Assembly: GCA_965197585.1 (NCBI GenBank)
Contig: OZ240215.1
Location: forward strand, 1,920,001-1,984,000
Length of the DNA: 64,000 nt
DNA from: Dehalococcoidia bacterium
Lineage (GTDB): Bacteria; Chloroflexota; Dehalococcoidia; Plut-88900
Direction: 5' to 3'
Part shown: piece after piece, positions 1,320-33,631 of the stretch
Numbering within the stretch: the stretch's first letter is position 1
Layout: each line of letters opens with the position of its first letter
Notes under the pieces: model-generated
Seen by the model: the letters and a program-made list of their open reading frames with translations, nothing else
What the model was told of the DNA's origin: nothing
The model's database searches: none
Program-made: the position numbers and the translations under genes

Positions 1320-1345
1320 ACAGCGGGTGCTCCGCCCGGTCTCCC

Positions 1346-2410
1346 CTAACCCGAAAACGCCGGCAGCACTTCCTTGACCATCAGGTCTGCCGCCAACTTC
1401 TTCTCTCCTTCGACTTCGTCCACAGTCGGGCCATACACTACTAGCCTGTCGAATCCCATATCCACCACTTGGCGAATCCGCCTTATGCACTCCTCCGGAG
1501 GCCCGACTATCGCGTACCGGTCCACGAACTCCGCAGGCAACACAGCCGACGAGCTATGGTCACGTACATCGTAGTTCCTGTGGACTGCCTTAAGCACCTC
1601 TTGGTCCTGCTCCGTAACGGGTCCGTTTGTCTTCCCGTGCATGTTGGAAAAGCGGACAGCCGCGGCCAACTCAGGTGTAAACCCCCTCGCCACTTCGACG
1701 TCGGGATGGCAGGCTACACTGAGATAGACACCGATGCGGATTCCCTCCGGGTCCAGTCCCGCCTCCCTTCGCGCGTTCCGGACCAGTTCCGACCCCCAGT
1801 GCAGCCTCCTCAGGTCCGCCCCCACCGCCAACATCACGATATCGGCGTATCGAGCCGCCGCTCCGATCACCCTCGGCCCCGAGGCCGAAACCGCTACCGG
1901 CACCTTCTTGTCTTCGGGTCCAAGCCACGTGAGCCGGCTGTCCTCCGGTGCTTCCGCCAGCTTGAGCGTATCCACGTGCGGCGCCATCCCCCGGCCAAAG
2001 GTGAGCTCGTCGAAGGGTACGCCGTCTCCGCTGAGGTAAGCCTGTAAAGCCTTAAGATAGCTCTCGAAAAGCTTCGTGTAGACCGGCGCATGACCAACAT
2101 GCGCCAATGCCGAATCACCCCTCCCGATCCCCAGGACCGCCCGACCATCCGACACTTGCTGCACGCTCGCGATAGCCCCTGCGGTGACCACGGGGTGTCG
2201 AGTCAGGGGGTTCGTCACGTCCGAGCCGATCTTGATTCGCTCTGTCGCCATCGCCGCGAGCGTCATCGCCACGTACATGTCACCTGATACACTTTGAACG
2301 TCGCCAACGGATATGCCGTCCCAACCAGCCTCCTCGGCCCTCCGGGCATATTCCCCTATCTGGCGTACATCCGGATAGGCGAACGTCCACATTTCTACTT
2401 TGTTATTCAC
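1346..2410 (-). CDS. LLM-class flavin/F420-dependent oxidoreductase (Mer-like), tandem copy
   Basis: AEEAGWDG, VTNPLTRHP, GRAVLGIGRGDS, ASGPR motifs. Confidence 0.9.
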   Translation of the reverse strand: MNNKVEMWTFAYPDVRQIGEYARRAEEAGWDGISVGDVQSVSGDMYVAMTLAAMATERIKIGSDVTNPLTRHPVVTAGAIASVQQVSDGRAVLGIGRGDSALAHVGHAPVYTKLFESYLKALQAYLSGDGVPFDELTFGRGMAPHVDTLKLAEAPEDSRLTWLGPEDKKVPVAVSASGPRVIGAAARYADIVMLAVGADLRRLHWGSELVRNARREAGLDPEGIRIGVYLSVACHPDVEVARGFTPELAAAVRFSNMHGKTNGPVTEQDQEVLKAVHRNYDVRDHSSSAVLPAEFVDRYAIVGPPEECIRRIRQVVDMGFDRLVVYGPTVDEVEGEKKLAADLMVKEVLPAFSG

Positions 2411-2479
2411 AACTCACCCATATCAGTCCGAAATGTCCAACCAACGTTTTGCACGCACTATCATCTCGGCGCCTTCTTT

Positions 2480-2572
2480 CCCGTCCTCCCGAGGCTTGAA
2501 GCAAAGCATCATCACCAAACTGCTCACCGGCGTTGAATAGGGATAACGGTAAGTGTGCTGAATCCGGTAGAG
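2480..2572 (-). pseudogene. Decayed 5' fragment of the transglutaminase gene (duplication remnant)
   Basis: Minus strand reads YRIQHTYRYPYSTPVSSLVMMLCFKPREDG versus intact YCIKHTSRYVYSSPVSKSALTLCFRPREEDG. Confidence 0.8.
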
Positions 2573-2612
2573 CCCTCGGCCTGGCATTCCGCCCAGATTC
2601 CGCCCTACACGC

Positions 2613-3677
2613 CTAACCGGAAAATGCCGGAAGAACTTCCTGTACCATCAGGTCCGCGCAACGCTTCTTCTCTCCCTCGACCTCGTCCACCGTCGGCCCG
2701 AGCACAACAATCCTGTCTATGCCCAGGTCGACAACCTCTTGGATCCGCCTGATACATGTCTCCGGAGGCCCGACTATCGCAAATCGGTCCACAAACTCCG
2801 CGGGGGGAGCATCCGGAGTGGTGTGGTCCCGCATGTTGAAAGACTTATGCATCCCCGTCAGGACTTCCTGCTCCATCTGGGTAACCGGCCCGTACGTCTT
2901 CCCGTGCATTACCGAAAATCGGGCAAACGTGTCCAAAAACGTTATCAACTCCCTCGCCACTTCCACTTCCGGATGACAGACAATATTTAGATAAGCTCCG
3001 TATCGGATTCCGTCCGGGTCCAGCCCCGCCTCCCGCCGCGCCGCTCGGGCCTGTTCCAGTCCCCACTTTAGCCTTCCTATGTCTGCCCCCAGGGCAAACG
3101 TAACGATGTCGGCATGTCTCGCCGCCGCCCTTATCACCTTCGGCCCGGAAGCTGCAACGGCCACGGGCACCTTCTTGTCTTTGGAGTCGAGCCACCTGAG
3201 GCTGCTGTCATCCGGGGCATCCGCCAGCCTCAGCGTATCAACATGTGGTGCCATTCCCCGCCAGTGCGTCAGTTCCTCGAAGGCCACGCTTCCCCCACTG
3301 AGGTAGGCTTGCAGCGCCTTCAGGTAATTCTCGAAGAAGTTGGAGTACACGGGCGCATGCCCAACGAACGCCAGTGCCGAGTCACCCCGCCCGATACCCA
3401 GCACCGCCCGACCCTCCGACGCCTCCTGAACGCTCGCAATCGCCCCTGCAGTCACCGCCGGATGTCGGGTCAGGGGATTGGTAACATCCGTGCTCAGCTC
3501 TACCCGCTCAGTCACCGCCGCCGCCAGCGCCATCGAGACGTATGTGTCCCCTCCCAGGTTCTGGGAGTCGAAGAACCCGATACCGTGCCAGCCTGCCTCC
3601 TCCACGCGTTTGGCATAGTCCGCAGCTCGCCGGGTATTTGGGCTAACGGCCGTCAATATTTCTACTTTGTTTTTCAT
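2613..3677 (-). CDS. LLM-class flavin/F420-dependent oxidoreductase, tandem copy
   Basis: Same motifs; clearly alignable with both neighbours. Confidence 0.9.
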   Translation of the reverse strand: MKNKVEILTAVSPNTRRAADYAKRVEEAGWHGIGFFDSQNLGGDTYVSMALAAAVTERVELSTDVTNPLTRHPAVTAGAIASVQEASEGRAVLGIGRGDSALAFVGHAPVYSNFFENYLKALQAYLSGGSVAFEELTHWRGMAPHVDTLRLADAPDDSSLRWLDSKDKKVPVAVAASGPKVIRAAARHADIVTFALGADIGRLKWGLEQARAARREAGLDPDGIRYGAYLNIVCHPEVEVARELITFLDTFARFSVMHGKTYGPVTQMEQEVLTGMHKSFNMRDHTTPDAPPAEFVDRFAIVGPPETCIRRIQEVVDLGIDRIVVLGPTVDEVEGEKKRCADLMVQEVLPAFSG

Positions 3678-3711
3678 AACATCCCGATTCTACTCCATCC
3701 TGTCCACCGCC

Positions 3712-3812
3712 CTCCCGAGACTTGAAGCAAGGGGCATCGCCGAACCGCTTACCGGAGAGGAATAGGAGTAACGGGAAATGTGTTGAATCCGATATCAGGC
3801 AGGCCCTGTCAT
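3712..3812 (-). pseudogene. Decayed 5' fragment of the transglutaminase gene (duplication remnant)
   Basis: Minus strand reads MTGPA*YRIQHISRYSYSSPVSGSAMP, then a frameshift to CFKSRE; retains the ATG and upstream spacer seen at 1317-1345. Confidence 0.85.
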
Positions 3813-3839
3813 ACAGCCGGGCCCTGCGCCCGGTCTGTC

Positions 3840-4913
3840 CTAACCCGAAAACGCCGGAAGCACTTCCTTAACCATCAGGTCTGCCGCTATCTTCGCCTCA
3901 TCCTCCACCACGTCAACCGTCGGCCCATTAACTACGATCCTGTCGATACCCAGGTCGATAACCTCCCGGATTCGCCTGATGCATTCCTCCGGTGGCCCGA
4001 CTATCGCGAAACGGTCCACGAACCCCGCAGGCCGCGCGATGCTCGAACTGTGTTCGCTCATATTGAACATCTTGAAGCCCTTGTGCAGACCCTTAAGTAC
4101 TTCTTGGTCCTGCTTGGTCACGGGTCCATAAGTCTTGCCATGCATTACCGAAAAGCGGGCAGTCCCGTCCAGGTGGGGATATAACTTCCTCCCCACTTCC
4201 ACGTCAGGATGACAGACAACAACTAGGTAAGCTCCATATCGGATGCCGTCAGGGTCTAGTCCCGCTTCCTCTCGGGCATCACGAGCCTGTTTCATCCCCC
4301 ACTTGAACCTGTCAGGTTCGGCTCCCAGCGCTAACATCACTATGTCGGCGTGGCGGGCCGCAGTTGCGATCACCTTAGGCCCGCTGGCCGCAACGGCTAC
4401 GGGCGCCTTTTTGTTCTCCGGTTCCAACCATATCATGCGGCTGTCTTGCGGAGTCTCCGCCAGGTTTAGGGTGTCCACGTGCGGCGCCATCCCCTTGCCG
4501 AAGGTTAGATCGTCAAATGGCACTCCTCCTCCCTTTAGGTAGGCCTGCAGAGCTTCGAGGTACCTCTCGAAGAAGCTGGTGTACACCGGTGCATGGCCCA
4601 CGTACGCCAGTGCCGAGTCCCCACGCCCGATCCCCAGCACCGCCCGCCCTCCCGACACCTGTTGCACGCTCGCGATGGCGCCCGCAGTAACCGCCGGGTG
4701 TCGAGTCAAAGGATTGGTGACATCCAGACTGATCTCTATTCTCTCCGTTGCCATCGCGGCGATGGTCATCCCCACATAGCTGTCGGCGGTGAGGTTCTGA
4801 GAATCATAAAGGGATATGCCGTCCCAACCGGCCTCCTCGACCTTGCGGGCATACTCGGCAATGGGCCCCACTTCCGGCCCGACCGCCGTCAACATTTCAA
4901 CTTTGCTACCCAT
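3840..4913 (-). CDS. LLM-class flavin/F420-dependent oxidoreductase, first copy of the tandem array
   Basis: Same motifs as the two downstream copies. Confidence 0.9.
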   Translation of the reverse strand: MGSKVEMLTAVGPEVGPIAEYARKVEEAGWDGISLYDSQNLTADSYVGMTIAAMATERIEISLDVTNPLTRHPAVTAGAIASVQQVSGGRAVLGIGRGDSALAYVGHAPVYTSFFERYLEALQAYLKGGGVPFDDLTFGKGMAPHVDTLNLAETPQDSRMIWLEPENKKAPVAVAASGPKVIATAARHADIVMLALGAEPDRFKWGMKQARDAREEAGLDPDGIRYGAYLVVVCHPDVEVGRKLYPHLDGTARFSVMHGKTYGPVTKQDQEVLKGLHKGFKMFNMSEHSSSIARPAGFVDRFAIVGPPEECIRRIREVIDLGIDRIVVNGPTVDVVEDEAKIAADLMVKEVLPAFSG

Positions 4914-5883: not shown

Positions 5884-6363
5884 ATGACCCCTAGACGGAA
5901 GACGACCGCTTGGGAGCTGGACCTCCACGGCCAAACTTGGCCCGAGGCCCGCAGACTGTTCGTAGATTTCTACAACCAAGCCCTCTCTTCAGGCAAGGGC
6001 CGGGTCGAACTCACGATAATTCACGGCTGGGGAGCATCCGGCCAGGGTGGAACCCTACGCAGCCGACTGAGACATTTCCTATCCGGCTATCGGGACAGCC
6101 TCGAGTTCACACCTGGAGAGGACGTCGATGGAAACCGGGGCTGCACATACGTCACACCCCTGGAACACCTCCCCGAAGCCAATAACCCCCTCGCCGAGGC
6201 GATCTGGGACTACTGCCAACGCCCCCGCGCAACAAGTAAGGTGATGGGCAGGTTCCGCCGCCACGGCAACCCCCAAGTCTTGGAGGCCGTTCGCCACCTC
6301 AAAAAACAGGCCCGCCTCACCGAGACCCACAATGGCAAAACACCGATCTTAGAGTCGCGCTAA
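5884..6363 (+). CDS. Smr/MutS2-domain protein
   Basis: ELDLHG, IIHGWG..G.GG.LR and GNRGCT motifs. Confidence 0.85.
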   Translation: MTPRRKTTAWELDLHGQTWPEARRLFVDFYNQALSSGKGRVELTIIHGWGASGQGGTLRSRLRHFLSGYRDSLEFTPGEDVDGNRGCTYVTPLEHLPEANNPLAEAIWDYCQRPRATSKVMGRFRRHGNPQVLEAVRHLKKQARLTETHNGKTPILESR

Positions 6364-6370
6364 GCCACCC

Positions 6371-6784
6371 TTAAAGCTGCCTCAGGCTGTGCACGGCATC
6401 CTGAGGACTGATCGCCGGAATCGGGGACTTTTTATAGTCTTTGAGGTTCCTGGTCACTATCCGGGTCGCCCCACACCCTCGCGCCGCAGCCACTTGCATC
6501 GCATCCTCAAAGTCTTCCATCGGCAGTGAGGCCGCATAACGCACCCCCTCCGCATCTGTGGCCGCGACTTCCACGATACGGGTCAGCTGCACTATGAAGT
6601 CACGGGTACTAATTCCACCATGCCGCGGCGACACCAGGTAGTAAAGGTTAGAGACGCTGTGCCAGGCTATGCATGCCTTTTCATAGCCCAGTTCCACAAG
6701 GTCCAGCACCTGGGCGGCAGCTTCGGAGAAAGGCTCCCTATCCAGGGCCACGTCAATGAGCACGTCGGTGTCGATGAGGATCAT
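6371..6784 (-). CDS. PIN-domain (VapC-like) toxin
   Basis: ILIDTDVLID, DFEDAMQ, IVTRNLKDY. Confidence 0.9.
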   Translation of the reverse strand: MILIDTDVLIDVALDREPFSEAAAQVLDLVELGYEKACIAWHSVSNLYYLVSPRHGGISTRDFIVQLTRIVEVAATDAEGVRYAASLPMEDFEDAMQVAAARGCGATRIVTRNLKDYKKSPIPAISPQDAVHSLRQL

Positions 6785-7111: not shown

Positions 7112-7957
7112 CTACTCCTCCTTCTTCACCCTGATCCCACCGTACGTCTCCGCACGCCACTCCAGCGCCAGCCTCAGGCCTTTTTCCTCCACCATGTCGT
7201 AGAACTGCCGAACTTGGGGAGCCAGGTGTGTGAACGCAGAGTTCTCGACTGCCAGCCTCTGGGACGCGGCGAATCCCATGTTGTCCAGTACCTTGTTCAC
7301 CAACGACTTGTTCGGCTCCAGCAGGTCCAGTGGCAGCAGCGCAATTTTCTGCGCCAGCTTGTCCACCTCCGCATCCAATTCCTCCGCCGGCACCGACTTG
7401 AACGTCAGCCCGATCCGTTCCGCCGTCTTCCCGTCTATGTTGTCGCCCGTCAGCAGGACATACTTCGCCCATTGCGGTCCGACAAGGTACGTCCACGCAT
7501 GCCTGAGTACGCTCTGCATCCCTTTCACGTCCGGGCATCCTATCTGCGCATCCTCAGCAGCTAAGATGAAATCGCACAGAAGGAAAAGGTCCGTGGCCCC
7601 TGCCAGGAAATAGCCGTGCACCTGCACTATTGTAGGCTTGCTTATCCCGCGGATCATGTCAGCGGCCTCTGTCCAAACTCTCGTTACCTTCTTGTAATCG
7701 TAAGCGGTCGTCACATCGGAGGTTCGGTTGGGCTGGTCTGGCGCCAGGTCCGCCCCTGCCGTGAAAGCCCTGCCATTACCCTTGATCACTATCACCCTCA
7801 CCTCTCGGTCATCATCCATGCCCTTCAGCGCATCGACAATCTCGCCCACGAATGCCTTGTTTAGCGCATTCAGCTTTTTTGGCCGGTTGAGTATCACGTA
7901 CCCGATCCTGCCCTTTTTCTCCGTTAGAACGTACTCGTAGTCCACGTTTTCCTCCAT
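7112..7957 (-). CDS. Enoyl-CoA hydratase/isomerase (crotonase) family protein
   Basis: LNRPKKLNAL, AFTAGADL, KPTIVQVHG motifs. Confidence 0.9.
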   Translation of the reverse strand: MEENVDYEYVLTEKKGRIGYVILNRPKKLNALNKAFVGEIVDALKGMDDDREVRVIVIKGNGRAFTAGADLAPDQPNRTSDVTTAYDYKKVTRVWTEAADMIRGISKPTIVQVHGYFLAGATDLFLLCDFILAAEDAQIGCPDVKGMQSVLRHAWTYLVGPQWAKYVLLTGDNIDGKTAERIGLTFKSVPAEELDAEVDKLAQKIALLPLDLLEPNKSLVNKVLDNMGFAASQRLAVENSAFTHLAPQVRQFYDMVEEKGLRLALEWRAETYGGIRVKKEE

Positions 7958-7996
7958 TGCCTTATTCGGACTCTGAATCGTATTGGTTAGTTTCCT

Positions 7997-9148
7997 CTAG
8001 TTGCCATTCTTGTCCTGGAACCTCGGCACGACCTCCGTGCCAAACAACTCGATACTCTCCATGTACTGCTCGAAACTGATGAACGGTATGCTCGGGAATA
8101 TCTGGAAGTGCTGGAAGTTTATCTCCCTGTTCAGCCTGTCCAGCTGCTCCGCAATATGGTCGGGCGTTCCCACCATTATTACGTTGTGCTTCCACAGGAA
8201 GTCGAACCAGTCGCAGTTCAGGTCGTCGTTGTGCAGCGTCTCGCTCGACCCCAACAGACCCTGCCGCACCCGACCCATGTGCGCCTCGATATTTCCGTAC
8301 AGGTCGTTAATTCCCGGCCTGGCAATGCTGATGGCTTCCTCCATCGTCTTGGCGCAGAACGACATGAACTGGATTGATGTCTTCTCTCCCAGCGGCAGAC
8401 CATTCCCCGCACTCTCCGTGCCCTTCTTGTATGCCTCGAACCCGTCCCTGATCCCTTCCAATGACCTCGCCGACCCCATCCCAAACAGCCCCCGAGCCCC
8501 GGCCACTTCCCATGACCGGTTGCTCGTCACCATCTGGGTGATTGGTGGATGTGGTTTCTGGTACGGCTTAGGCAGAACCGACACCTTAACCAACTCCCCG
8601 TCAGGCGAGTAGTGCGGAGGAGTAAGAGGAACACCGGGATCGGTCTCCATCCAGCCCGGTAGAGGGATCGTGTAGAAACGCCCCTTGTGGCTGAATGCCT
8701 CTTCAGTCCAAGCCTTGATGATTATGTCCAGAGATTCGGTGAACAGGGCGTAGTTCTTTTCGTTGTTCCGCCGGTCGGCCTCCGGGTTTAACTGCGCCCC
8801 CCACCGACTGTTGAATCCCCTCCCAATCCCGAACTCAGCTCTCCCCAGTGTCATATGGTCCAGGGTTGCTATGTCCTCGGCAACACGGATCGGATGCCAG
8901 TCGCAGATCGAGGTTGGGCTTTGTCCTACTTTCAGCGTCTTGGTGTGTAGGGCTATGTCCAGTCCCGTCATTATCGGGTTCGTGGCCGTCGAGAAGAAGC
9001 CGTCGTGCCAAAGGTGGTGCTCCGCCACCCACGCCGTCGTGAACCCCAGCGCCTCCAGAGCCCGGCCATACTCCCTGTACTCATCAACCTGGATGTGCCA
9101 GGGGATTACCTTTTTCGTATGCCAGAATATCGAGCTATCAAATCGCAT
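7997..9148 (-). CDS. Luciferase-like (LLM) flavin-dependent monooxygenase
   Basis: WVAEHH, HPIRVAEDIATLDH, GRAEFGIGRG, PKPYQKPHPP. Confidence 0.9.
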   Translation of the reverse strand: MRFDSSIFWHTKKVIPWHIQVDEYREYGRALEALGFTTAWVAEHHLWHDGFFSTATNPIMTGLDIALHTKTLKVGQSPTSICDWHPIRVAEDIATLDHMTLGRAEFGIGRGFNSRWGAQLNPEADRRNNEKNYALFTESLDIIIKAWTEEAFSHKGRFYTIPLPGWMETDPGVPLTPPHYSPDGELVKVSVLPKPYQKPHPPITQMVTSNRSWEVAGARGLFGMGSARSLEGIRDGFEAYKKGTESAGNGLPLGEKTSIQFMSFCAKTMEEAISIARPGINDLYGNIEAHMGRVRQGLLGSSETLHNDDLNCDWFDFLWKHNVIMVGTPDHIAEQLDRLNREINFQHFQIFPSIPFISFEQYMESIELFGTEVVPRFQDKNGN

Positions 9149-9217
9149 CTATGACCTCTCCTTTGAGTTTCTGGAAACGGATCGCCGTCCTCGGAGATCC
9201 CTGAAAGGCCTCTAATC

Positions 9218-10282
9218 CTACAGCGGTTCTACGAAGGTCAAAGCCCGCCTCGGATTATCAATAAGTATCCGCCGGATCTCCTCTTCCCCGAAGCCCTTGA
9301 GCCGCATCCTGGGAACCATGTATTCGAGGAAGTAGCAGTAACCTTGACCCCCGTTCTTAACCAGTTGCTTCTTCTGAGCTATGTCATGCGACACCAGTAG
9401 TTGGCCCCCGTGCCCCTCGCTTATCAGCCATGCCATTATATTTAGCCGCTGCGCGTCATTGAGGATGTCTATGTGAGGCGCAGCCGGGAAAAACGAGGTC
9501 TCCTCCCCAAAAAAGTCGTACTCGAGAAAGCACCCGGTCTCCGCCAGTTCCTTCAGCAGCTTCTTGTCGAATATCGTACGCTCCAGGTGCCCGACAATCA
9601 CCCGCCTGGGATCGGCCCCCGATTCCAGCAGGATTTCCATGATCTCCCCTGGGCTCGATTGGTCCCTGCCCGGGTGTATCAGGATTGGCGCTCCAGTCAG
9701 CCTATGCGCCCGAGCCGTGGCCCTTAGCACCTTCCGCTCGTTTGGGTGCAGCGGCCACGAACACCCCACCTCCCCTATTATCCCCGATCGTATACCCGTG
9801 TTCCCAACGCCCTTCAGCACATCCCCAGCTATTTGCTCGGTTAGCGACTCCTCACTCCTCTTATCCATGTCGGCCGGATGCGTCACGCCGACATAGAAGG
9901 AAGACCCCATGATCACGTGCACCCCCGTGGCCCGGGAGATGCGCGTCAATCCCACGGGGTCCCGTCCGATGCCTATGTTCGTTGCATCCACCAGCGCCGA
10001 GCCACCGAACTCCTTATACAACCCCACTTCAGCGATGATGGTCGGGATGTCATCCAGCTTGGAATTATCCTTGTTTACCCCCTGCCCGTGATGAATCCAT
10101 CCCAGGATCTCGATGCTGAATGGAGCTTCGTATTTCCCCCTCTGGCTCGCCTCCTCCGGAACTTCCGCCAACCCGTCGAACGACGATAGCAGGTGCTCGT
10201 GCGTCATCGTAACGCCCAGGTCCTCCGGCGCTATTGGCCCTAGTACCGTCTGCACCTTACCCCCCAGGCTCACACCGCTCAC
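9218..10282 (-). CDS. Phosphotriesterase-family (PTER/Php-like) metallohydrolase, tandem copy 3
   Basis: GKVQTVLG, THEH, GIIGEVGCSWP, IHPGR, GHLERT, SHD; GTG start overlaps the upstream stop. Confidence 0.92.
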   Translation of the reverse strand: MSGVSLGGKVQTVLGPIAPEDLGVTMTHEHLLSSFDGLAEVPEEASQRGKYEAPFSIEILGWIHHGQGVNKDNSKLDDIPTIIAEVGLYKEFGGSALVDATNIGIGRDPVGLTRISRATGVHVIMGSSFYVGVTHPADMDKRSEESLTEQIAGDVLKGVGNTGIRSGIIGEVGCSWPLHPNERKVLRATARAHRLTGAPILIHPGRDQSSPGEIMEILLESGADPRRVIVGHLERTIFDKKLLKELAETGCFLEYDFFGEETSFFPAAPHIDILNDAQRLNIMAWLISEGHGGQLLVSHDIAQKKQLVKNGGQGYCYFLEYMVPRMRLKGFGEEEIRRILIDNPRRALTFVEPL

Positions 10283-11343
10283 TGAGGCTCCACGAATGTC
10301 AGTGCCCGCCTGGGGTTGTCTACCAGAATCCGGCGAATGTCTTCTTCCTTGAAGCCCTTGATCTGCATCCTCGGCACCATGTATTCCAGGAAGTAGCAGT
10401 ACCCTTGGCCCCCATACTTCACCAAATGGGCCTTCTGAGCTATGTCATGCGACACCACTAGTTGGTCCCCGTACCCCTCGCTTATCAGCCACTCCATCAT
10501 GCTCAAACGCTGCGCGTCATTCATGATGTCTATGTGAGGTGCTGGCGGGTAATACGAGACCTCCTGCCCGAAGATATCGTACTCCAGAAAGCACCCCGTC
10601 TCAGCCAACTCCTTCAACACATTCTTGTCGAAGATAGTCCTGTCCAGGTGCCCGACGATCACCCGCTCGGGATCGGCGCCCGCCTCCATCAGAATCTCCA
10701 TGATCTCCGCTGGGCACGACTGATCCCTGCCGGGATGTATCAGGATAGGAGCCCCCGTCAGCCTTTGCGCCCGAGCCGTGGCCCGTAGCACCTTCCTTTC
10801 GTTAGGATGCAGAGGCCAAGTGCACCCCACCTCCCCCAATACCCCCGCCCGAATGCCCGTGTTCCCCACCCCCCTCAACACGTCCCCTGCTATCTGCTCA
10901 GTCAGCGACTCCTCGCTCCGTTCGCCCATGTCCGCCGGATGCCTTGATGCCACGTAAAACGACGCCCCCATGATGATATGCACACCCGTGGCCCGAGATA
11001 TGCGCGACAAACCCACCGGGTCCCGACCAATACCTAGGCTCGTAGCATCCACCAACGCCGAGCCGCCGAACTGCTCGTACAACCCCACTTCTTCAATGAT
11101 GGTAGGAATGTCGCCCAGCCTGGAATTGTCCTTGTTTACGCCTCGCCCATGGTGAATCCAGCCTAGAACCTCCAAATTGAACGGGGTTTCGTACTTTCCA
11201 TTCTGGCTTGCCCCCTCCGGCACCCCGAACACCCCATCAAACCACCCTAATACGTGCTCGTGCGTCATCGTAACGCCCAGGTCTTCCGGCTCTATTGGCC
11301 CAAGCACCGTCTGCACCTTCCCAGCCATGTTCACACCATTCAC
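10279..11343 (-). CDS. Phosphotriesterase-family (PTER/Php-like) metallohydrolase, tandem copy 2
   Basis: Same motifs; 4-bp GTGA overlaps at both ends. Confidence 0.92.
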   Translation of the reverse strand: MNGVNMAGKVQTVLGPIEPEDLGVTMTHEHVLGWFDGVFGVPEGASQNGKYETPFNLEVLGWIHHGRGVNKDNSRLGDIPTIIEEVGLYEQFGGSALVDATSLGIGRDPVGLSRISRATGVHIIMGASFYVASRHPADMGERSEESLTEQIAGDVLRGVGNTGIRAGVLGEVGCTWPLHPNERKVLRATARAQRLTGAPILIHPGRDQSCPAEIMEILMEAGADPERVIVGHLDRTIFDKNVLKELAETGCFLEYDIFGQEVSYYPPAPHIDIMNDAQRLSMMEWLISEGYGDQLVVSHDIAQKAHLVKYGGQGYCYFLEYMVPRMQIKGFKEEDIRRILVDNPRRALTFVEPQ

Positions 11344-12404
11344 TGAGGCTCCACGAATGTAAGCGCCCGCTTGGGATTGTCTACCAGGATCCGACGGATA
11401 TCCTCCTCCTCGAAGCCCTTGATCCGCATCCTCGGCACCATGTACTCCAGGAAATAGCAGTACCCGTGCCCTCCGTACTGCACAAGCCGGTTCTTCCGAG
11501 CGATGTCATGCGAGACAAGAAGCTGTCCCCCGTGCCCCTCGCTTATCAACCATGCAAGCATGTTCAGCCGTTGCGCATCGTTGGGCATGTCTATGTGGGG
11601 TGCCGCCGGATACAGAGAAGTCTCCTGACCGAACACGTCGTACTCCAGGAAACACCCCGTCTCGGCAAGGTCCTTCAGTAGCTTTTTGTCAAAAATGGTC
11701 CTGTCCAGATGCCCGACAATCACCCGCTTGGGGTCCGCCCCCGTCTCCAATAGGATCCCCATTATCTCCGCCGGGCTCGTCTGGTCCCGCCCCGGATGTA
11801 TCAGGATCGGCGCCCCCGTCAGCCTCTGCGCCCGAGCCGTGGCCCGTAGCACTTTCCGCTCAGTGGGTCGCAGGGGCCATGTGCACCCCACCTCCCCCAT
11901 TATCCCCGCCTTTATCCCCGTGCTCCCCACACCCCTCATCACATCCCCGGCTATCTGCTCGGTCAGTGATTCCTCGCTTCTCTCGTCCATGTCCGCAGGA
12001 TGCGTAACACCCACATAGAACGAAGAACCCATGATCACGTGTACTCCCGTGGCCCGTGATATGCGCGTCAACCCCACCGGGTCCCGACCCAGCCCTAGGC
12101 TCGTCGCATCCACCAGCGCCGAGCCCCCAAACTCCTTATATAGCCCCACTTCCTTAACGATGGTGGGGATGTGGTCCAGCTTGGAATTATCCTTGTTGAT
12201 TCCCCTTCCGTGGAGCAGCCAGCCGAGAATCTCTATGCTAAAGGGAGCTTCAAACTTCGCCTTGAGACTCGCCTCCGTCGGTTCCTTGTACACCCCCACC
12301 GTCGACACAAGCAGATGCTCATGCGTCATCGTTACACCCAGATCATCCGGGTCTATAGGCCCAAGAACCGTCTGCACTTTCCCTGCAAGGCTAACGCTGC
12401 TCAT
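11340..12404 (-). CDS. Phosphotriesterase-family (PTER/Php-like) metallohydrolase, tandem copy 1
   Basis: Same motifs; start placed at MSSVSLAGK by alignment with paralogs. Confidence 0.92.
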   Translation of the reverse strand: MSSVSLAGKVQTVLGPIDPDDLGVTMTHEHLLVSTVGVYKEPTEASLKAKFEAPFSIEILGWLLHGRGINKDNSKLDHIPTIVKEVGLYKEFGGSALVDATSLGLGRDPVGLTRISRATGVHVIMGSSFYVGVTHPADMDERSEESLTEQIAGDVMRGVGSTGIKAGIMGEVGCTWPLRPTERKVLRATARAQRLTGAPILIHPGRDQTSPAEIMGILLETGADPKRVIVGHLDRTIFDKKLLKDLAETGCFLEYDVFGQETSLYPAAPHIDMPNDAQRLNMLAWLISEGHGGQLLVSHDIARKNRLVQYGGHGYCYFLEYMVPRMRIKGFEEEDIRRILVDNPKRALTFVEPQ

Positions 12405-12489
12405 ATTCTGCCCTTCATGCTTTTTGTCATGCACCCTTGTATAAGACCTTCCGCACCTCTCTTGGAAGGGCTTGTGGAGGTGTCCTGTC

Positions 12490-12527
12490 CCCTCTCCCTT
12501 GATGGGAGAGGGCTAGGGTGAGGGTGA
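12490..12527. repeat. REP-like family B (ccctctccc...gggagagggctagggtgagggtga)
   Basis: Hairpin; copies at 33594-33631 and 32665-32702, interrupted copies at 29814-29894 and 33532-33574. Confidence 0.85.
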
Positions 12528-12580
12528 TATGGCTTCCCCCACCCGCAATTGCGCAGGAACCTCATTTTGCCCCCACCCCC

Positions 12581-13294
12581 CTAGTCCCTAATGTTGAAAC
12601 CCCGATACACCTCCGCATATTTCACGCCCCTCGGCTTTCCATTCTCACTCCGCCACATCCGCATGTACTTCTCGGCGTCCTCCGGCCTGACCTGGCTTCT
12701 GTGCTGTTTCAAAGCCTCGATAGCCGTTTCTATAGTGTCTGTCACGTCTATGACCGTGTTTGCATCTTCGCTCCGGTCCATAATCAGCAGTTGTGCAACC
12801 TTGTGAGGCTCGAAACCCTCGTCCAGAAGCCCGGGAAACGTGAGCCTATCCCGGGCCGCCGGGTAGACCGCCGACATCGTTGCTTCTCCCACAGCAATGT
12901 GGTCCGGGTGCCCGATATAGTCTCCGTGATCGAAGCTGCGGATCGGGCAGGGAGAGATGAGTATGTCCGGTTTGTGCCTTCTTATCTCTCTGGAAATGTC
13001 CTTGCGCAGCTCCAGTGATGGGGTCAGCATGGCATCTTCGTAGTCCAGGAAAATCACATCCCTCACGCCCAACACGTCGGCAGCATCGCGTTGCTCCTGC
13101 CTCCTCATCTCGGCCAGCTGCTGGTTGTCTATCTCCGGGACGTCCGTCCCTTTGTTCCCGTTGGTGCAAATAATGTACACGACGTCCATTCCATCTTTGC
13201 ACCACTTCGCCACCGTCCCCGAGCATCCCCACTCCGCATCGTCGGGATGTGCCACAATCACCATCCCCCGCTGAGGCTTGATATCGTCTTCCAT
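12581..13294 (-). CDS. PIG-L/LmbE (MshB-like) N-deacetylase
   Basis: VAHPDDAE, TNGNKG, R.QEQ..AA..LG, HPDH, H.SQ motifs. Confidence 0.92.
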   Translation of the reverse strand: MEDDIKPQRGMVIVAHPDDAEWGCSGTVAKWCKDGMDVVYIICTNGNKGTDVPEIDNQQLAEMRRQEQRDAADVLGVRDVIFLDYEDAMLTPSLELRKDISREIRRHKPDILISPCPIRSFDHGDYIGHPDHIAVGEATMSAVYPAARDRLTFPGLLDEGFEPHKVAQLLIMDRSEDANTVIDVTDTIETAIEALKQHRSQVRPEDAEKYMRMWRSENGKPRGVKYAEVYRGFNIRD

Positions 13295-13359
13295 GCTCCT
13301 CCTACCTTGTTATTCTTATCATCGAATTTTGTGCCGAATTGAGGGCCGAAACCCGGCCT

Positions 13360-14109
13360 TCAACTGTATCGTTCTACCAGTTCCCTTATCAACAGCGTCA
13401 GGCCGGAAATGATTATGACTGCAACCACCGCAAACCTCAACATCGATTCCTTCATTCTCCCAACCAACCGAGATGCAACCCAGAATCCGGCCAGGGTTGC
13501 GGGCAGAAGCATCAGATTTAGCAGCCATCTTTCCCTGGTGTATATACCGAATATTACGTAAAGGACAATTGCAAAGACTGCAACCGTAGAGTAGTAGACC
13601 GCTATCGTCACCCTGATCTTCCTCGCCCCCAAGCCCTGGTTGAACAAGTGCCAGGCCACAATCGGAATCCCGACACCCAACCCCGTCACCAGTGCTGCCC
13701 CACTGAACCCGAACGCCGCGTCCACTAACTTGGATTTAGGTATCGGAACCCTTCTCCGCGAAAGGCTCAGCGCTGCCAATACGACTATCACGACGCCAAT
13801 GAGTATCTTCAGTGACTCTGGAGCCAGGTTTTCCAGTACCAGGAGTCCTACAGGTACTCCAGCCAGTCCTGCTATTACTAGCGGCTTGGCCGATCCGACG
13901 TCTACCTCCCCCCTCCCCTTCACCCCGATCATCGCCAGCCCCACGAAGGATAGCGTGTTGACAGCCAGCACCACGGGTGGGGGATCTAAGACCAGCAGGA
14001 GCATCGGAGACAGCATCATCCCCATCCCAAACCCCACCAGTCCCGCCACGGCGGAGCTCAGAAACACCGCCCCCATCGCAAATGCCAGCTCGGGACCCGA
14101 GAGGAGCAT
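13360..14109 (-). CDS. Sulfite exporter TauE/SafE-family membrane protein
   Basis: About 250 aa, ~8 TM helices, N-terminal G..GFG.GM...P motif and internal G.G.P repeat. Confidence 0.8.
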   Translation of the reverse strand: MLLSGPELAFAMGAVFLSSAVAGLVGFGMGMMLSPMLLLVLDPPPVVLAVNTLSFVGLAMIGVKGRGEVDVGSAKPLVIAGLAGVPVGLLVLENLAPESLKILIGVVIVVLAALSLSRRRVPIPKSKLVDAAFGFSGAALVTGLGVGIPIVAWHLFNQGLGARKIRVTIAVYYSTVAVFAIVLYVIFGIYTRERWLLNLMLLPATLAGFWVASRLVGRMKESMLRFAVVAVIIISGLTLLIRELVERYS

Positions 14110-14187: not shown

Positions 14188-15558
14188 ATGTCCACGGTCT
14201 TAGCCAATGCCACTATAGTCACCTCGAACCCCAACAGGGACATTCTGTACGATGCAGCCCTTGCTGTGGACGATGGGCGCATCGCCGCCCTCGGCCCGAC
14301 GCCTGACCTCCTGTCCCAGTTCCCCAACGCCGAGCTCGTTGACTGCCGAGGCAAGACCGTCTTCCCGGGTCTCATCAACGCTCACACCCACCTCATGCGC
14401 ACCGTGGGGCGCGGCATCCTCGAAGATACGGGTTACCCCAACACTCTGCAACATCCCCAGGATGTCCGTGAGATGCTTAGCCCCGACGAGACCCGCGTGA
14501 TGATCATGCTCGGCGCCTTGGAATCTATACGGAGCGGGAGCACCGGTCTCATCGAAATTAGCCGGAACACGGAGACATTTGCCCCCGCCTTGGAAACAAC
14601 GGGACTCCGGCTTGTACTGGCCGAAGTAATGGAAGACCTCGACCCTGAGCCCGCAAAACTTGGCATCTATGCGTACTCTGACGACCGCAGAGAAGCGAGC
14701 ATCCAAAGAGGCTCCGGCTTAGTCGAAAAGTGGAACGGATCCGCTGGAGGCCGCATAACCTGCTTCTTCGCTCCCGGTGCCCCCGAGTCCTGCTCTCCCC
14801 AACTCCTGCGTTCCGTCAGAGAAATGGCCGAAAGCTATGATATCGGCTACACCATCCACCTCTGCCAGAGCATGGTCGAGATGAATGCCATCCGCCGCAT
14901 CTACGGTGTCCGACCCACCCACTACCTCTTCGCCAACGAGTTTCTCGGCCCCCGACTCCTCACCGCCCACAATCGCTACGTCGATGATTCGGAAATAGCG
15001 ATGCTCGGCGGCGCGGGGGTGAGCATATCCAACAACCCAGCCATCGCCGCCCGACGAGCTACAGCCGCCCCCGTCCTGGAACTCGAAGCCGCCGGATGCA
15101 ACGTCGCAATGGGCTCCGACAACATGACCCACGATATGGTTGAGGTCCTGCGCTCCGGTGTCTTCTACGAAAGGGTGCGCCGCAACTCCCAGATGCATCC
15201 CATGCCCGAGGACGTCCTCGAGTGGGCCACTATGGGTTCCGCCCGTGCCCTTCGCCTCGACCAAAAGGTCGGCTCCCTTGAACCGGGCAAACAAGCCGAC
15301 CTCTTCATCATCAACTCTTCCCGCGCCCATCTAGTACCCAACCTCAGAATCGTATCCGCATTCGTGCACAACGGTCAGGCTGGCGACATAGAGTCCGTCA
15401 TGGTCGACGGCCAGTGGCTAATGCGAGACTGCAAGGTCCTCACCATCGACGAAGCCTCCGTAGTCGAAGCTGCCCAGGAAGTCGGCGCCCGAGCCTGGCA
15501 ACGCCTCCTAGAGCTCTACCCAAACGTCCCATTCCCCTTCACCCTCGCCCCAAACTAA
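14188..15558 (+). CDS. Amidohydrolase (MTA/SAH deaminase / AtzA-like family)
   Basis: FPGLINAHTH, IHLCQ, GSDN, GSLEPGKQAD, VMVDG. Confidence 0.9.
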   Translation: MSTVLANATIVTSNPNRDILYDAALAVDDGRIAALGPTPDLLSQFPNAELVDCRGKTVFPGLINAHTHLMRTVGRGILEDTGYPNTLQHPQDVREMLSPDETRVMIMLGALESIRSGSTGLIEISRNTETFAPALETTGLRLVLAEVMEDLDPEPAKLGIYAYSDDRREASIQRGSGLVEKWNGSAGGRITCFFAPGAPESCSPQLLRSVREMAESYDIGYTIHLCQSMVEMNAIRRIYGVRPTHYLFANEFLGPRLLTAHNRYVDDSEIAMLGGAGVSISNNPAIAARRATAAPVLELEAAGCNVAMGSDNMTHDMVEVLRSGVFYERVRRNSQMHPMPEDVLEWATMGSARALRLDQKVGSLEPGKQADLFIINSSRAHLVPNLRIVSAFVHNGQAGDIESVMVDGQWLMRDCKVLTIDEASVVEAAQEVGARAWQRLLELYPNVPFPFTLAPN

Positions 15559-15953: not shown

Positions 15954-17483
15954 ATGCGTGTAAAGCCCCCATCCCTCGACGCCCTCTCCGAAATCGCAGA
16001 GTCCTATGGATTCGACCTTTCCGAAGAAGACTTGGAGTCCTTCCAGGGCCTCATCTCCCCAATAATGGCCTCCTACGAAAGGCTCGACCAGCTTCCTGAG
16101 CCTGCTCTGCCCGTCAAATACGCCAGAACTCCCGGACACCGCCCCTCCCCCGAGAACAACCCCCTCAACGCCTGGTACTGGCGCAGTGAGATCAAGGGTG
16201 CAGATTCCGGCCCACTGGAAGGCAAAACCGTAGCCATCAAGGACAATGTTTCCGTCGCAGGCGTTCCCATGATGAACGGCACCGCTGTGCTGGAAGGCTA
16301 CGTACCCAACTCCGACGCCACCGTCGTCACCCGCATCCTTGACGCCGGAGGCACCATCCTAGGTAAGGCCGTCTGCGAAAGCATGTGCATCTCCGGCGGC
16401 AGCCACACCTCCGACACGGGCCCTGTCCGAAATCCTTATGACCAGACCCGCAGCGCAGGGGGTTCCTCCAGCGGCAGTGCAGCCCTCGTCGGCGCGGGCG
16501 CAGTCGACATGGCCATTGGCGGTGATCAGGGTGGCTCCATCCGTATACCAGGATGCTGGTGTGGCATCTACGGCCTAAAGCCCACCCACGGCCTCGTCCC
16601 CTACACCGGAATCTTCCCCATTGAGATCACCCTCGACCACACCGGCCCCATGGCCCGTTCCGCCGCAGACTGCGCCCTCCTTCTGGAGGCCATCGCAGGC
16701 CCCGACGGCCTGGACCCGAGGCAGAACGCCAACCTTCAAGCGCAAGCCTATACCCAACTCCTCACTGGAGACGTCTCCAGCCTCCGTATCGGCGTCCTGG
16801 AGGAAGGATTCGGACTAGACGGCCTTTCGGAAGAAGATGTCGACGAAATGAATCGTCAGGCGGCGGTAGGCTTCGAAACCCTTGGCGCAAGCGTAACCAG
16901 CGTTTCAGTCCCTTGGCACAAGGACGGCGTCCACGTTTGGAACGGCATCGGAATCGAGGGGCTCACCCTGCTAATGATCGCCGACAATGGCATGGGCACC
17001 AACTGGAAGGGCCACTATTCCACCGGTCTCCTCGACGCATTCGCCCGAGGCCGCAGAACCCGCGCCAACGACTTCTCCGAGACTGTCAAAATGATCGTCC
17101 TCCTCGGCCAATACCTCCACGACGACTACCACGGCAGGTACTACGCCAAGGCACAGAACCTAGGCCGCAGCCTCAAGGCCGCCTACGACCGGGCTTTCCA
17201 AGACGTCGACCTCCTCCTGATGCCGACCCTCCCCCTCAAGGCGACCAAGATTCCCAGCCCCGACGCTTCCCGGGAAGACTACGTCGCCCGAGCCCTCGAA
17301 ATGATCCCCAACACCGCGCCCTTCGATGTCACGGGCCATCCCGCCATTACCGTGCCCTGCGGCATGTCGGAGGGCCTGCCCGTGGGCATGATGCTGGTCG
17401 GCCGCACCGGCGAGGATGCCACCGTCCTCCGCGCCGCCGACGCCTTCCAACGCAACGTCTACTCCCCCGATTACCCATCCTGA
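15954..17483 (+). CDS. Amidase-signature family amidase
   Basis: IKDN, GGSSSGS, GGDQGGSIRIP (Lys-Ser-Ser triad); RBS aggagg. Confidence 0.95.
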   Translation: MRVKPPSLDALSEIAESYGFDLSEEDLESFQGLISPIMASYERLDQLPEPALPVKYARTPGHRPSPENNPLNAWYWRSEIKGADSGPLEGKTVAIKDNVSVAGVPMMNGTAVLEGYVPNSDATVVTRILDAGGTILGKAVCESMCISGGSHTSDTGPVRNPYDQTRSAGGSSSGSAALVGAGAVDMAIGGDQGGSIRIPGCWCGIYGLKPTHGLVPYTGIFPIEITLDHTGPMARSAADCALLLEAIAGPDGLDPRQNANLQAQAYTQLLTGDVSSLRIGVLEEGFGLDGLSEEDVDEMNRQAAVGFETLGASVTSVSVPWHKDGVHVWNGIGIEGLTLLMIADNGMGTNWKGHYSTGLLDAFARGRRTRANDFSETVKMIVLLGQYLHDDYHGRYYAKAQNLGRSLKAAYDRAFQDVDLLLMPTLPLKATKIPSPDASREDYVARALEMIPNTAPFDVTGHPAITVPCGMSEGLPVGMMLVGRTGEDATVLRAADAFQRNVYSPDYPS

Positions 17484-19281: not shown

Positions 19282-20394
19282 CTACATGTCCCGGTAGACG
19301 GCTAACCCTTCGGCCAGCTTGTCGGAGCGCTCCAACCCGACATACCTTGCGTTCTGCAGGTACGTCCTCACAAAATCACCTAGAAGACTTCCGACTCTCT
19401 TCATCCCTGTCCGCACGCCTTCCACCCCGTGGCCCATGATTACGCCCAGAGACTCGGGCAGCACCGGGTCTTTCAGGTCCCTCACCATCTGCGCCTCCGC
19501 GATGTCGAGCACCCGCTGGAACACCCTCTCCTTGCCGGGCTGCTGGGAGTAGGAGTATTTGATATGCGCAAGGCCGTAAGTCAGGTGTCTCGCATTGTCC
19601 TGTAGGCACCGGGCAAAGATAGCCTTCTCCGCCGGGTTGTGGGCATACATCTCACCGTACCGGTATAGAGTCTGAGTGAACGACCCCCTAAGCACGTGCA
19701 GGAACAAGCTCGCCGAAGTCCAGTCATTGTTGCTCTGCAGTATGACCCTGTCGACTTCCCCCCGGCTCTCGAGACCCAGGCCCCCGCTGTTGCTCAAGGC
19801 CCTCTTCCGGAATACGTCAAAGTGCCGTGCCGCGTCGAACACCTCAGAGGCCAGGAAGACTTTGACTTCGTGGTAGCCATACGACATTTGCTGGATCCAC
19901 CCTGCCACAACCTCGTACTCCACGTTGGCCTGTTGACACAGCTCCGTACAGAGCTGGCACATAGCCCTTTCCACATCGTCAGGTAGCGGCTCGATGGTGT
20001 TCCACGGGATGTCGGTCGCCGGGACCCAGCGCTTCTGGATCGCCTCCTCGTACAGGTCGGCAGCGTTGTCGGCCCACAGTTCGCGCTTATGCCGCAGGGT
20101 GATGTTTGCTACGAAAGGGCGTTCCACCCCGGGGTGCGCACCGCGAAGGGCCCGCGTCCTGTCCTCGTGGTACTCAGGGATTTGGCCGTAGATCCCAACA
20201 TTCAGGGACCCGAGAGTCAGCCCCTTCTTACCCGGCTTGACCCTGATCCCCCACTCGAGATTCTCCTGCATCCAGTCCAGCGACAGGTCAGGGGCAGCAG
20301 TTTCTTCCTCTTCGACTATCTCCTGGAGGATGCGTCGGTGCTTCCTGACACCCTCCGGCTGCTGGGGCTCGGATTTCTCGTCATTTGTTGGCAT
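19282..20394 (-). CDS. Ferritin-like fold protein lacking the diiron glutamates (putative structural/beta subunit)
   Basis: Alignable throughout with 20485-21579; DAARH and DNARH replace DExRH; start placed at MPTND. Confidence 0.75.
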   Translation of the reverse strand: MPTNDEKSEPQQPEGVRKHRRILQEIVEEEETAAPDLSLDWMQENLEWGIRVKPGKKGLTLGSLNVGIYGQIPEYHEDRTRALRGAHPGVERPFVANITLRHKRELWADNAADLYEEAIQKRWVPATDIPWNTIEPLPDDVERAMCQLCTELCQQANVEYEVVAGWIQQMSYGYHEVKVFLASEVFDAARHFDVFRKRALSNSGGLGLESRGEVDRVILQSNNDWTSASLFLHVLRGSFTQTLYRYGEMYAHNPAEKAIFARCLQDNARHLTYGLAHIKYSYSQQPGKERVFQRVLDIAEAQMVRDLKDPVLPESLGVIMGHGVEGVRTGMKRVGSLLGDFVRTYLQNARYVGLERSDKLAEGLAVYRDM

Positions 20395-20484
20395 ATATGC
20401 CTTCTCTGGGCTGGGCTGCAGACCCGGATACATCGGCCAACTGCCGACTTGCGAACGCAATTGCGGCCTTAGGGCCGAGGGCTA

Positions 20485-33531: not shown

Positions 33532-33631
33532 CCTCTCCCTCGACGAGACCTTTGCATAACTCCAAGGGAGAGGGTTTGGGGCGGAGTCCTATACCCTCTC
33601 CCTCGATGGGAGAGGGCTAGGGTGAGGGTGA
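33532..33631. repeat. Two adjacent REP-like family B copies; the first contains an 18-nt insert resembling an IS5/IS1106-type end
   Basis: cctctccc..[gagacctttgcataactc]..gggagagg, then a full copy at 33594-33631. Confidence 0.7.

Follow-up and report, generated by a model that had tools for sequence, protein, structure and literature searches.

The stretch analysed here (the window: 64,000 nucleotides of contig OZ240215.1, positions 1,920,001 to 1,984,000, from the Dehalococcoidia bacterium assembly GCA_965197585.1; coordinates below are counted from its first letter unless another source is named) carries a minus-strand run of seven genes. At its centre are three tandem hydrolases of the phosphotriesterase (PTE) family that resemble the animal phosphotriesterase-related protein, PTER, followed by a luciferase-like flavin monooxygenase (LLM). 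The run opens with a TauE/TSUP-family membrane transporter (13360-14109; PF01925, 7e-27) and a PIG-L/LmbE deacetylase (12581-13294; PF02585, 1.1e-33). It continues with PTER-like copy 3 (P0003, 11340-12434; PF02126, 2.5e-80), copy 2 (P0002, 10279-11343; PF02126, 3.3e-77) and copy 1 (P0001, 9218-10282; PF02126, 4.8e-78), and then with the LLM, which is of the luciferase/diketocamphane type (7997-9148; PF00296, 4e-38), and at its end an enoyl-coenzyme A (CoA) hydratase of the crotonase family (7112-7957; PF00378, 1.9e-35). The order and coordinates of the seven genes, as read from the open reading frames and their Pfam matches, agree with those given in an earlier note made on this DNA from its letters alone. 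Copy 2 shares 4-nt overlaps with both of its PTE neighbours; 69 nt lie between copy 1 and the LLM, and 39 nt between the LLM and the crotonase. The true start of the 11340 copy is likely to be the ATG at 12404 (residue 11), because its relatives align only from residue 6-11 on. A fourth PTER-like paralog stands apart from the run (48408-49523, minus strand; PF02126, 1.1e-77). It lies between two class-III aminotransferase (Aminotran_3) genes at 45245-46621 and 49575-50903, as the earlier note had also remarked, and its 71%-identical ortholog in another genome (G154) likewise adjoins an Aminotran_3 gene.

The seven-gene run looks like a composite of two modules. The three PTER-clade binuclear-metal hydrolases, the LLM and, in this genus only, the hydratase would form a real unit, whereas the TauE and PIG-L genes, with the amidohydrolase and amidase genes divergent from them, are probably a separate amide-hydrolase unit that has come to abut the first in one genus by chance. 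The firm part of this picture is a group of PTER-clade hydrolases with a predicted anion-binding pocket, triplicated in recent times and recurrently paired with an LLM of the ketone/aldehyde type.

The hydrolases fall in the PTER-like clade of the PTE family. All four window copies match PF02126 with 260-270 bits over profile positions 1-297 or 3-297 of 298. When P0003 is compared with chains in the PDB, the best score by far is that of 9efa, filed as "Phosphotriesterase-related protein" (292.8 bits, E 3.6e-86). The bacterial proteins Rsp3690 (3k2g) and Pmi1525 (3rhg) follow with 207.3 and 136.8 bits, and then E. coli Php with 112.2 bits and the chains of PTE and the phosphotriesterase-like lactonases (PLL) with 108.2 bits at most. 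Chain 9efa is taken here to be the sponge PTER of PMC12873775 (9efa/9efb), because 13 of 13 checked residues (all those named in that paper except Phe131) are numbered there as the chain index plus 2. The alignment of P0003 (residues 13-361) with 9efa (chain positions 4-356) is full-length and has two small gaps but no long one; that with P0145 has four gaps. P0003 is 40% identical over 349 residues to an "N-acetyltaurine hydrolase-like" protein of the echinoderm Amphiura and 38-42% identical to the named eukaryotic PTERs. Its identity to E. coli Php is 29% over 278 residues. A helical region after strand 1 (sponge PTER residues 35-75), which is often missing from bacterial PTEs (PMC12873775), appears from the alignment to be present in the window proteins; Php, in which it is missing, aligns to P0003 only from residue 80. 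The family as such is an established one, its members widely carrying the annotation "phosphotriesterase-related protein".

Among 1.84 billion representatives searched, 5835 relatives reached E <=0.001, and 895 reached E <=1e-30. Four of these could be assigned to eukaryotes through their clusters (the Amphiura protein, a Tigriopus PTER and two EukProt entries), and the other named relatives are bacterial, from Chloroflexota, Acidimicrobiia, Roseovarius and Acidoferrum. The tree was an IQ-TREE quick search on 75 rows with SH-aLRT support only, its rows including none from mammalian PTER, Rsp3690, Pmi1525 or named PLL sequences. In it, a PTER-like clade of 72 rows (SH-aLRT 98) takes in the window copies and the eukaryotic PTERs, and outside it fall Php and two other PTE-family genes of the genome, own_1783617 and the Lys-bridged own_1488579. 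The paralogs are thus PTER-like, as the earlier note had supposed, and not Php- or lactonase-like. The large clade contains an unresolved polytomy of 49 rows, from which the core clade of eukaryotes (7 rows, support 91), the window clades and many bacterial lineages branch off separately. The three tandem copies group together as one another's closest relatives (SH-aLRT 99), and the branch nearest to them is a sister genus's single copy (support 100). The triplication is therefore recent.

The family is represented in the genome beyond the window as well. Eight proteins match PF02126, and five of these are PTER-like copies with the anion-binding site described below, four in the window and one at 1291975. 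Three more PTE-family genes, at genome C1:1488579-1490593 and 1783617-1784531, are not PTER-like: the tandem pair 1488579/1489631 is Lys-bridged (the carboxy-Lys type), and 1783617 (319 aa) has neither Glu nor Lys at that position in the alignment. A further observation concerns P0124, the nearest 50% representative of the window copies. Its 90% cluster consists of proteins from Chloroflexota metagenome-assembled genomes (MAGs) and a 107-aa fragment filed under the sponge Geodia barretti, which is probably bacterial DNA in a sponge assembly.

The interpretation given in the earlier note holds in part. Among the motifs that it listed, GKVQTVLG, THEH, ERKVLRATARA, IHPGR and LEYD.FG are found in the translations of all three tandem copies, and the others are not in every copy. 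GIIGEVGCSWPL is exact in the 9218 copy only, with GVLGEVGCTWPL and GIMGEVGCTWPL in the other two; HLDRTI occurs in two copies and is HLERTI in the 9218 copy; and YGGHGY is found only in the 11340 copy, the remaining two having YGGQGY and NGGQGY. The window copies do lie in the same PTER-like clade as the animal proteins, at about 40% identity, but they lie outside the eukaryotic clade, and one proposed catalytic residue of the eukaryotic enzymes is replaced.

That residue becomes apparent when the active site is compared with that of the sponge enzyme, in which H27, H29, E174, H206, H235 and D303 bind the metals, Y131 is the oxyanion residue, and H206, R209, R238 and Y268 contact the sulfonate. 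H305 (mouse H300) is the proposed proton donor for the taurine leaving group, and R209, F270, F34 and Y131 make up a narrow gate (PMC12873775). In the alignment the six metal ligands (the HxH pair, the bridging Glu, two His and the Asp) are identical in the four window copies and in own_1291975. The bridging residue, E181 of P0003, stands opposite Glu174 of the sponge PTER, and the earlier reading of a bridging Glu rather than a carboxy-Lys is therefore correct. Tyr131, Arg209 and Arg238 are kept in all four window copies, and position 268 is Tyr in three of them and Phe in copy 1, the 9218 copy. His305, in contrast, is replaced by Ala in each tandem copy and by Cys in the fourth paralog. The gate of eukaryotic PTER is not preserved as a whole: Arg209 and Tyr131 are kept, but position 270 is Ala, Pro and Ala in the tandem copies and Phe in the fourth, and position 34 is Phe, Phe, Thr and Leu.

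Across the 179 aligned rows of the family, the triad of Arg, Arg and Tyr or Phe is found in 74. His at position 305 is found in only 11, ten of them PTER-like and one being the genome's own Lys-bridged paralog. Nine of the ten PTER-like rows belong to the clade that holds all four named eukaryotes, and the tenth, the unnamed P0219, lies outside it. The anion-binding site thus characterises the clade as a whole, and the residue proposed to act as acid towards an amine leaving group is met almost exclusively in the eukaryotic clade. The three tandem copies vary among themselves at 99 of 354 positions (28%). The variation is dense just after the HxH motif, where 15 of the 22 positions in residues 41-62 differ, including the one corresponding to the Phe34 gate residue, the segment having been picked after looking at the data. 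As the copies differ mainly at the mouth of the substrate channel, they probably accept different members of one substrate class.

The nearest characterised relatives of these hydrolases are PTERs, and one proposal is that the window copies are also amidohydrolases, acting on small N-acyl anionic amines such as N-acetyl-beta-alanine, N-acyl amino acids or N-acylated omega-amino acids and passing the amine on to transaminases or to the LLM, with no special role for taurine. The 40% identity to the echinoderm protein and the retention of Arg209, Arg238, Tyr268 and Tyr131 are consistent with this, as is a 2026 paper in which PTER is linked to N-acetyl-beta-alanine (PMC13311154). The proposal is strongest for the fourth paralog, set between its aminotransferases and with an Aminotran_3 gene also beside the G154 ortholog. 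Gene neighbourhoods in other lineages (RidA with a PTE in seven loci, MR_MLE with a PTE in five, L041, L096, L112, L121 and L127) would fit N-acyl amino acid chemistry, and within the genus there are amide hydrolases close by. These amide hydrolases fall in a separable module, however, the His305 position is Ala or Cys, and the recurrent partner of the PTER-like genes is a ketone/aldehyde-oxygenating LLM that has no obvious part to play with an amine product. On balance this explanation is somewhat doubtful, but it is a serious rival of the one preferred below.

The nature of the LLM was examined with a profile (A2) made from the window LLM and eight PTE-adjacent LLMs and ranked against PDB chains. 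The highest scores were those of 7bip (125.9 bits), LuxA (108.6), PuwE (91.6) and, over its full length, 3,6-diketocamphane monooxygenase (83.0). The sulfonate monooxygenases lie well below, with 47.0 bits for SfnG, 37.3, 25.8 and 21.9 for SsuD and 33.1 for MsuD, and these values do not bear out the suggestion that the LLM desulfonates. Chain 4uwm aligns to profile positions 29-374 of 378 (E 1.8e-22), and the higher scores of 7bip, LuxA and PuwE come from the N-terminal half. Every NCBIfam match of the window LLM is under its cut-off, with TIGR03565 not among these matches, so what can be claimed for the LLM is similarity to the luciferase/diketocamphane enzymes and not membership of a subfamily. 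For the crotonase, the nearest solved chain is the 3-hydroxypropionyl-CoA dehydratase 5zai (7.4e-39).

Pairing of PTER-like genes with LLMs recurs across the class. Out of 301 Dehalococcoidia genomes sampled, 42 had a match at E <=1e-40, representing 25 of 192 genera, and 40 loci were fetched from these genomes together with 80 from metagenomes. Before counting, the loci L001-L005, L008 and L048 were excluded, as were 31 loci shorter than 5 kb and L019 and L047, in which no PTE was called; the 88 remaining loci were merged at 90% PTE identity into 36 Dehalococcoidia groups and 43 metagenome groups. An LLM of the type found at 7997 lies directly adjacent to the PTER-like gene in 7 of the 36 Dehalococcoidia groups and 1 of the 43 metagenome groups, and within two genes in 8/36 and 1/43, while an LLM of any kind is directly adjacent in 7/36 and 3/43. 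When the 327 neighbours within two genes were clustered, the LLM cluster was the largest (13 proteins in 12 loci), ahead of RidA (8 proteins in 7 loci), an unnamed 274-aa protein (6), MR_MLE (5), and SDR, a TPP enzyme and MFS (4 each). The PTEs with an adjacent LLM are spread over at least three separate subclades of the tree. The genome contains some 17 LLMs of the window LLM's subfamily among its 99 PF00296 matches, and the chance expectation for PTE-LLM adjacency is low. No description of a PTER-like/LLM pairing was found in a literature search limited to phosphotriesterases in SAR202, whose one hit was unrelated.

The full run is seen only in four loci of the same genus (L001-L004), with two or three PTE copies and protein identities of 72-100%. 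At the sister-genus locus L005, the only members of the run are the PTE and a 71%-identical LLM. In one same-genus genome (G102:C1:1429658-1430718), the third PTE copy is split into two overlapping frames, so that members of the genus carry two or three PTE copies, one of which has occasionally decayed.

Other neighbourhoods of PTER-like genes were noticed in the course of the survey. A RidA/YjgF gene lies 3' of the PTER-like gene on the same strand in L034, from a Dehalococcoidia genome, and in the metagenome contigs L056, L058, L062, L064, L067 and L084; three of these seven loci have the order MFS, PTE, glyoxalase-fold gene, RidA. An array consisting of an MR_MLE enolase-superfamily gene, a beta-propeller gene, a PTER-like gene and the unnamed 274-aa protein, which is without a Pfam match, recurs in L041, L112, L121 and L127 and also in L040 and L016. 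Tandem PTER-like arrays are found elsewhere too, with four genes in a row on the metagenome contig L110 (5776-10142) and two each in L109 and L044.

Adjacency of this sort could arise without any functional coupling, as a by-product of catabolic islands rich in paralogs in which each enzyme has substrates of its own. The genome is of this kind, with its 99 PF00296 and 8 PF02126 matches, and the window alone holds 6 LLM, 6 Amidohydro_2 and 5 MFS genes. The partners of PTER-like genes also vary widely between lineages, and outside the genus only the PTE and the LLM persist together. Yet several families of the class show PTE-LLM adjacency, the PTEs involved come from three subclades or more, and the LLM always belongs to one subfamily; the genes in the window are tightly spaced, from the overlaps of the PTEs to the short gaps before the LLM and the crotonase; and the arrangement has been kept in four genomes of the genus whose proteins are as little as 72% identical. 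A lack of coupling is accordingly judged unlikely.

The 5' part of the run behaves differently. Between the PIG-L gene and the first PTE gene, at 12490-12512 on the minus strand, lies a hairpin like those of repetitive extragenic palindromic (REP) elements, with a GC-rich stem of 9 bp and a loop of 5 nt (fold -38.2 kcal/mol, z -4.72). With no U-run after the stem, it does not qualify as a classical terminator. The hairpin has 92 blastn-short matches in the genome and is present in very many copies in two sequencing runs, where the summed depth of its contigs is extreme and loose ends occur to either side. It marks the junction of the two modules. A second window copy of the REP-like hairpin is found at 33594-33616.

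Beyond the 5' end of the run, a divergent group of plus-strand genes starts at 14188 with an Amidohydro_1 gene (14188-15558; Pfam) and includes a methyltransferase gene (Pfam) and an amidase-signature enzyme (15954-17483; Pfam, with a match to the NCBIfam amidase model PRK07235 at 780.7 bits, above the cut-off). In a sister genus (G187), the TauE ortholog adjoins an M24 creatinase-like gene and is divergent from a 77%-identical ortholog of the amidase, on a 3.2-kb contig without a PTE. In G154, the companions of a 66%-identical PIG-L gene are an M24 peptidase gene and an amidase; the PTE-LLM pair is far away, and the ortholog of the window amidase is at yet another place. The TauE gene was not found in G154 or G083 with a single-protein query. 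Thus, the hairpin in the spacer, the context of TauE in G187 and that of PIG-L in G154 all set these two genes apart from the PTE genes, and TauE and PIG-L are probably part of the neighbouring amide-hydrolase module. The nearest solved chain to the PIG-L protein is diacetylchitobiose deacetylase (3.4e-33), and the second PIG-L locus of the genome is a glycosyltransferase/GNAT/CpsB cluster. PIG-L was also considered as a conserved partner of the PTEs and rejected, since it lies within four genes in only 2/36 Dehalococcoidia groups and 1/43 metagenome groups.

This separation bears on the model put forward in the earlier note, in which the hydrolase copies remove the acyl group of N-acyl-taurines, desulfonation of the product falls to the LLM or some other enzyme, and sulfite or sulfoacetate is exported through TauE. 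A conserved linkage with TauE, central to that model, did not emerge from the survey: TauE lies within four genes of the PTER-like gene in none of the 36 other Dehalococcoidia groups, is confined to one genus and, among the 43 metagenome groups, is within two genes in two (L075 and L081). A lack of such linkage is among the outcomes that the earlier note itself had named as refuting its model. The transporter family has also little value as a marker of taurine metabolism, since PF01925, with three copies in this genome, is present in 13 of 14 control genomes. The pathway genes that the model would lead one to expect did not appear. The best match to the xsc model TIGR03457 scores 295.9 bits against a cut-off of 676.4, with sub-threshold matches in all 14 control genomes too; the tauA model TIGR01729 has no match at E <=0.001; and the sole PF02668 protein (208.8 bits), at 141.7 bits against a cut-off of 313 for the taurine dioxygenase model NF007104, is not a true tauD. 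At a genome completeness of 91.9%, the absence of taurine genes is not thereby proven. For the two Aminotran_3 proteins of the window, the matches are to generic, hemL-like or GntE-like models, all under cut-off, in a search that used no dedicated Tpa model.

Some features do speak for the N-acyl-taurine model, namely the conservation of the residues that contact the sulfonate in the sponge PTER, the presence of TauE in the run at all four same-genus loci, two sulfite-oxidase-type molybdoenzymes in the genome and the published inference that N-acetyltaurine is a phytoplankton exometabolite used by marine bacteria (PMC9870897). A bacterial N-acetyltaurine pathway, naaS/naaT/naaR/naaABB'CC', is described for Cupriavidus necator and Ruegeria pomeroyi (PMC4334477 and PMC9870897). 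It catalyses the reaction proposed for the run, but according to those accounts it comes with a dedicated ABC transporter, a LysR regulator, a metallochaperone and linked tpa/xsc/pta, none of which is seen in the run; the naaS, naaT and naaR genes were not searched for in the genome. With the TauE copy of G187 sitting beside M24 and amidase genes, xsc, tauA and tauD all wanting, the LLM far from SsuD, MsuD and SfnG and His305 absent, the taurine reading is not supported, and it must be considered quite improbable. Nothing else in the genome ties the PTE triplet to taurine.

What combination of activities, then, would suit PTER-like hydrolases that keep the anion-binding site, lack the proposed amine-leaving-group acid and are paired with a ketone/aldehyde-type LLM? 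The explanation tentatively preferred, though with less than even confidence, is a monooxygenase-plus-hydrolase module acting on small anionic ketone-derived esters. The LLM would carry out a Baeyer-Villiger-type insertion of oxygen into a small ketone with an anionic head group, giving an ester or lactone that would be shaped like N-acyl-taurine or N-acyl-beta-alanine with O in place of NH. The PTER-like hydrolases would then cleave this product, the conserved Arg/Arg/Tyr site holding the anion, and the hydratase may lead the acid products into CoA-level metabolism. The wider PTE family tends to esterase and lactonase activity. This habit, the type of the LLM, the missing His305 and the existing hypothesis for SAR202 bacteria are the reasons for favouring a monooxygenase followed by a hydrolase. 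The family placement, the residue pattern, the LLM type and the recurrent PTE-LLM adjacency are observations, and the sequence of reactions, the type of bond broken and the identity of the substrate are inferred. A more specific version, in which PTER-like hydrolase and luciferase-type LLM constitute a two-step module of SAR202-type Dehalococcoidia that turns anionic ketones (4-oxo acids or oxo-sulfonates, for example) into esters and splits them, is doubtful.

The SAR202 hypothesis is that of Landry et al. (2017), who proposed that flavin mononucleotide (FMN) monooxygenases make lactones which are opened by an esterase or lactonase (PMC5395668). The present case agrees with that type II Baeyer-Villiger scheme in its Dehalococcoidia lineage, its large LLM expansion and the resemblance of the LLM to diketocamphane monooxygenase; it differs in that the paper names no hydrolase family. 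The PTER-like partner is a new candidate for the lactone- or ester-opening step of the Landry route.

Several points weigh against the monooxygenase-hydrolase explanation. By sequence, the characterised proteins closest to the hydrolases are the PTER amidases, and an N-acyl amine would suit the anion-binding triad just as well. The missing His305 does not exclude an amidase, because the role of this residue is only proposed and there is an alternative in the Asp of strand 8, which other amidohydrolases use as a proton shuttle. For the fourth paralog, the surrounding aminotransferases favour an amine product. The adjacent LLMs of other lineages are only 32-36% identical to the window LLM, whereas paralogs within the genome are closer (40-45%), and the pairing is therefore with an LLM subfamily and not with one ortholog. 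The loci are, moreover, not independent, because they come from related genomes, and in metagenome contigs an adjacent LLM of any type is rare, RidA (7 loci), MR_MLE and TPP enzymes being what recurs there. Pfam shows no flavin reductase gene within the run, to which this check was confined, and the run is without a CoA ligase or transferase. The crotonase is kept within the genus only and is missing from L005.

Comparison with the characterised members of the family places the window hydrolases apart from each of them. With eukaryotic PTER they share the metal site, Tyr131, the Arg209/Arg238/Tyr268 site (Phe268 in copy 1) and the region after strand 1; they differ from it in the Ala or Cys at His305, the altered gate at 270 and 34 and their position outside the eukaryotic clade. 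Next to PTER among the solved relatives come Rsp3690 (Rhodobacter sphaeroides) and then Pmi1525 (Proteus mirabilis), like the window copies bacterial, Glu-bridged and of similar length; they score far below PTER, however, and the alignments show no Arg pair in them and a Phe where PTER has His305. Esterase and organophosphonate activities have been reported for these two proteins. E. coli Php and the PTE/PLL lactonases have in common with the window copies the PF02126 domain and the binuclear TIM-barrel fold; the PLL/PTE-like members of this genome are the Lys-bridged pair and 1783617.

The setting of the run is one of abundant catabolic paralogs. The genome, of a marine type, is a single contig of 3.43 Mb whose close relatives are Dehalococcoidia MAGs by filing, and its paralog-rich pattern is the one reported for SAR202 (PMC5395668). 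Within the window, the LLM genes at 441-4913 include a tandem array of three (354-357 aa, at 1346-4913), each with 66-72% identity to the orthologs of the others. At 5884-6784, immediately 3' of the run, are convergent Smr-domain and PIN-domain genes that are kept in the same-genus loci. At 19282-20460 and 20485-21579 lie two neighbouring paralogs (392 and 364 aa) that have no Pfam family and share about 33-35% identity with the orthologs of the respective partner; one of the pair has a weak NCBIfam match, far under cut-off, to an R2-like ligand-binding oxidase (E 5e-10). A scan for promoters and terminators was uninformative: it gave 7 promoter-like sites where 3.6 were expected and 6 terminator-like sites where 5.3 were expected. 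A metatranscriptome contig, about 92% identical, spans the LLM into PTE copy 1; it is not counted as evidence here, as it does not imply a single transcript and may come from DNA carry-over. The sequencing run concerned holds 5% of the sampled words, and parts of the stretch left uncovered in it carry no meaning.

Animal PTER, an N-acetyltaurine hydrolase that regulates feeding, had no assigned function before 2024, and it has many bacterial relatives. A tested bacterial PTER-like enzyme was not met in the literature, no search having been aimed at such enzymes. If the window copies were to hydrolyse N-acetyltaurine, they would provide a second bacterial route to a common marine sulfonate, which on present evidence is the less likely outcome. 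If the more specific version for SAR202-type bacteria were true, the PTER-like gene would encode the hydrolase still lacking from the Baeyer-Villiger route proposed for the use of refractory dissolved organic matter by SAR202, and animal PTER would be a His305-bearing amidase offshoot of a bacterial esterase radiation. The recurrent monooxygenase partner thus gives a testable hypothesis on the function of the bacterial clade, on the identity of the hydrolase in the flavin-monooxygenase route proposed for SAR202-type bacteria and persistent marine organic matter, and on whether amidase activity is a eukaryotic innovation.

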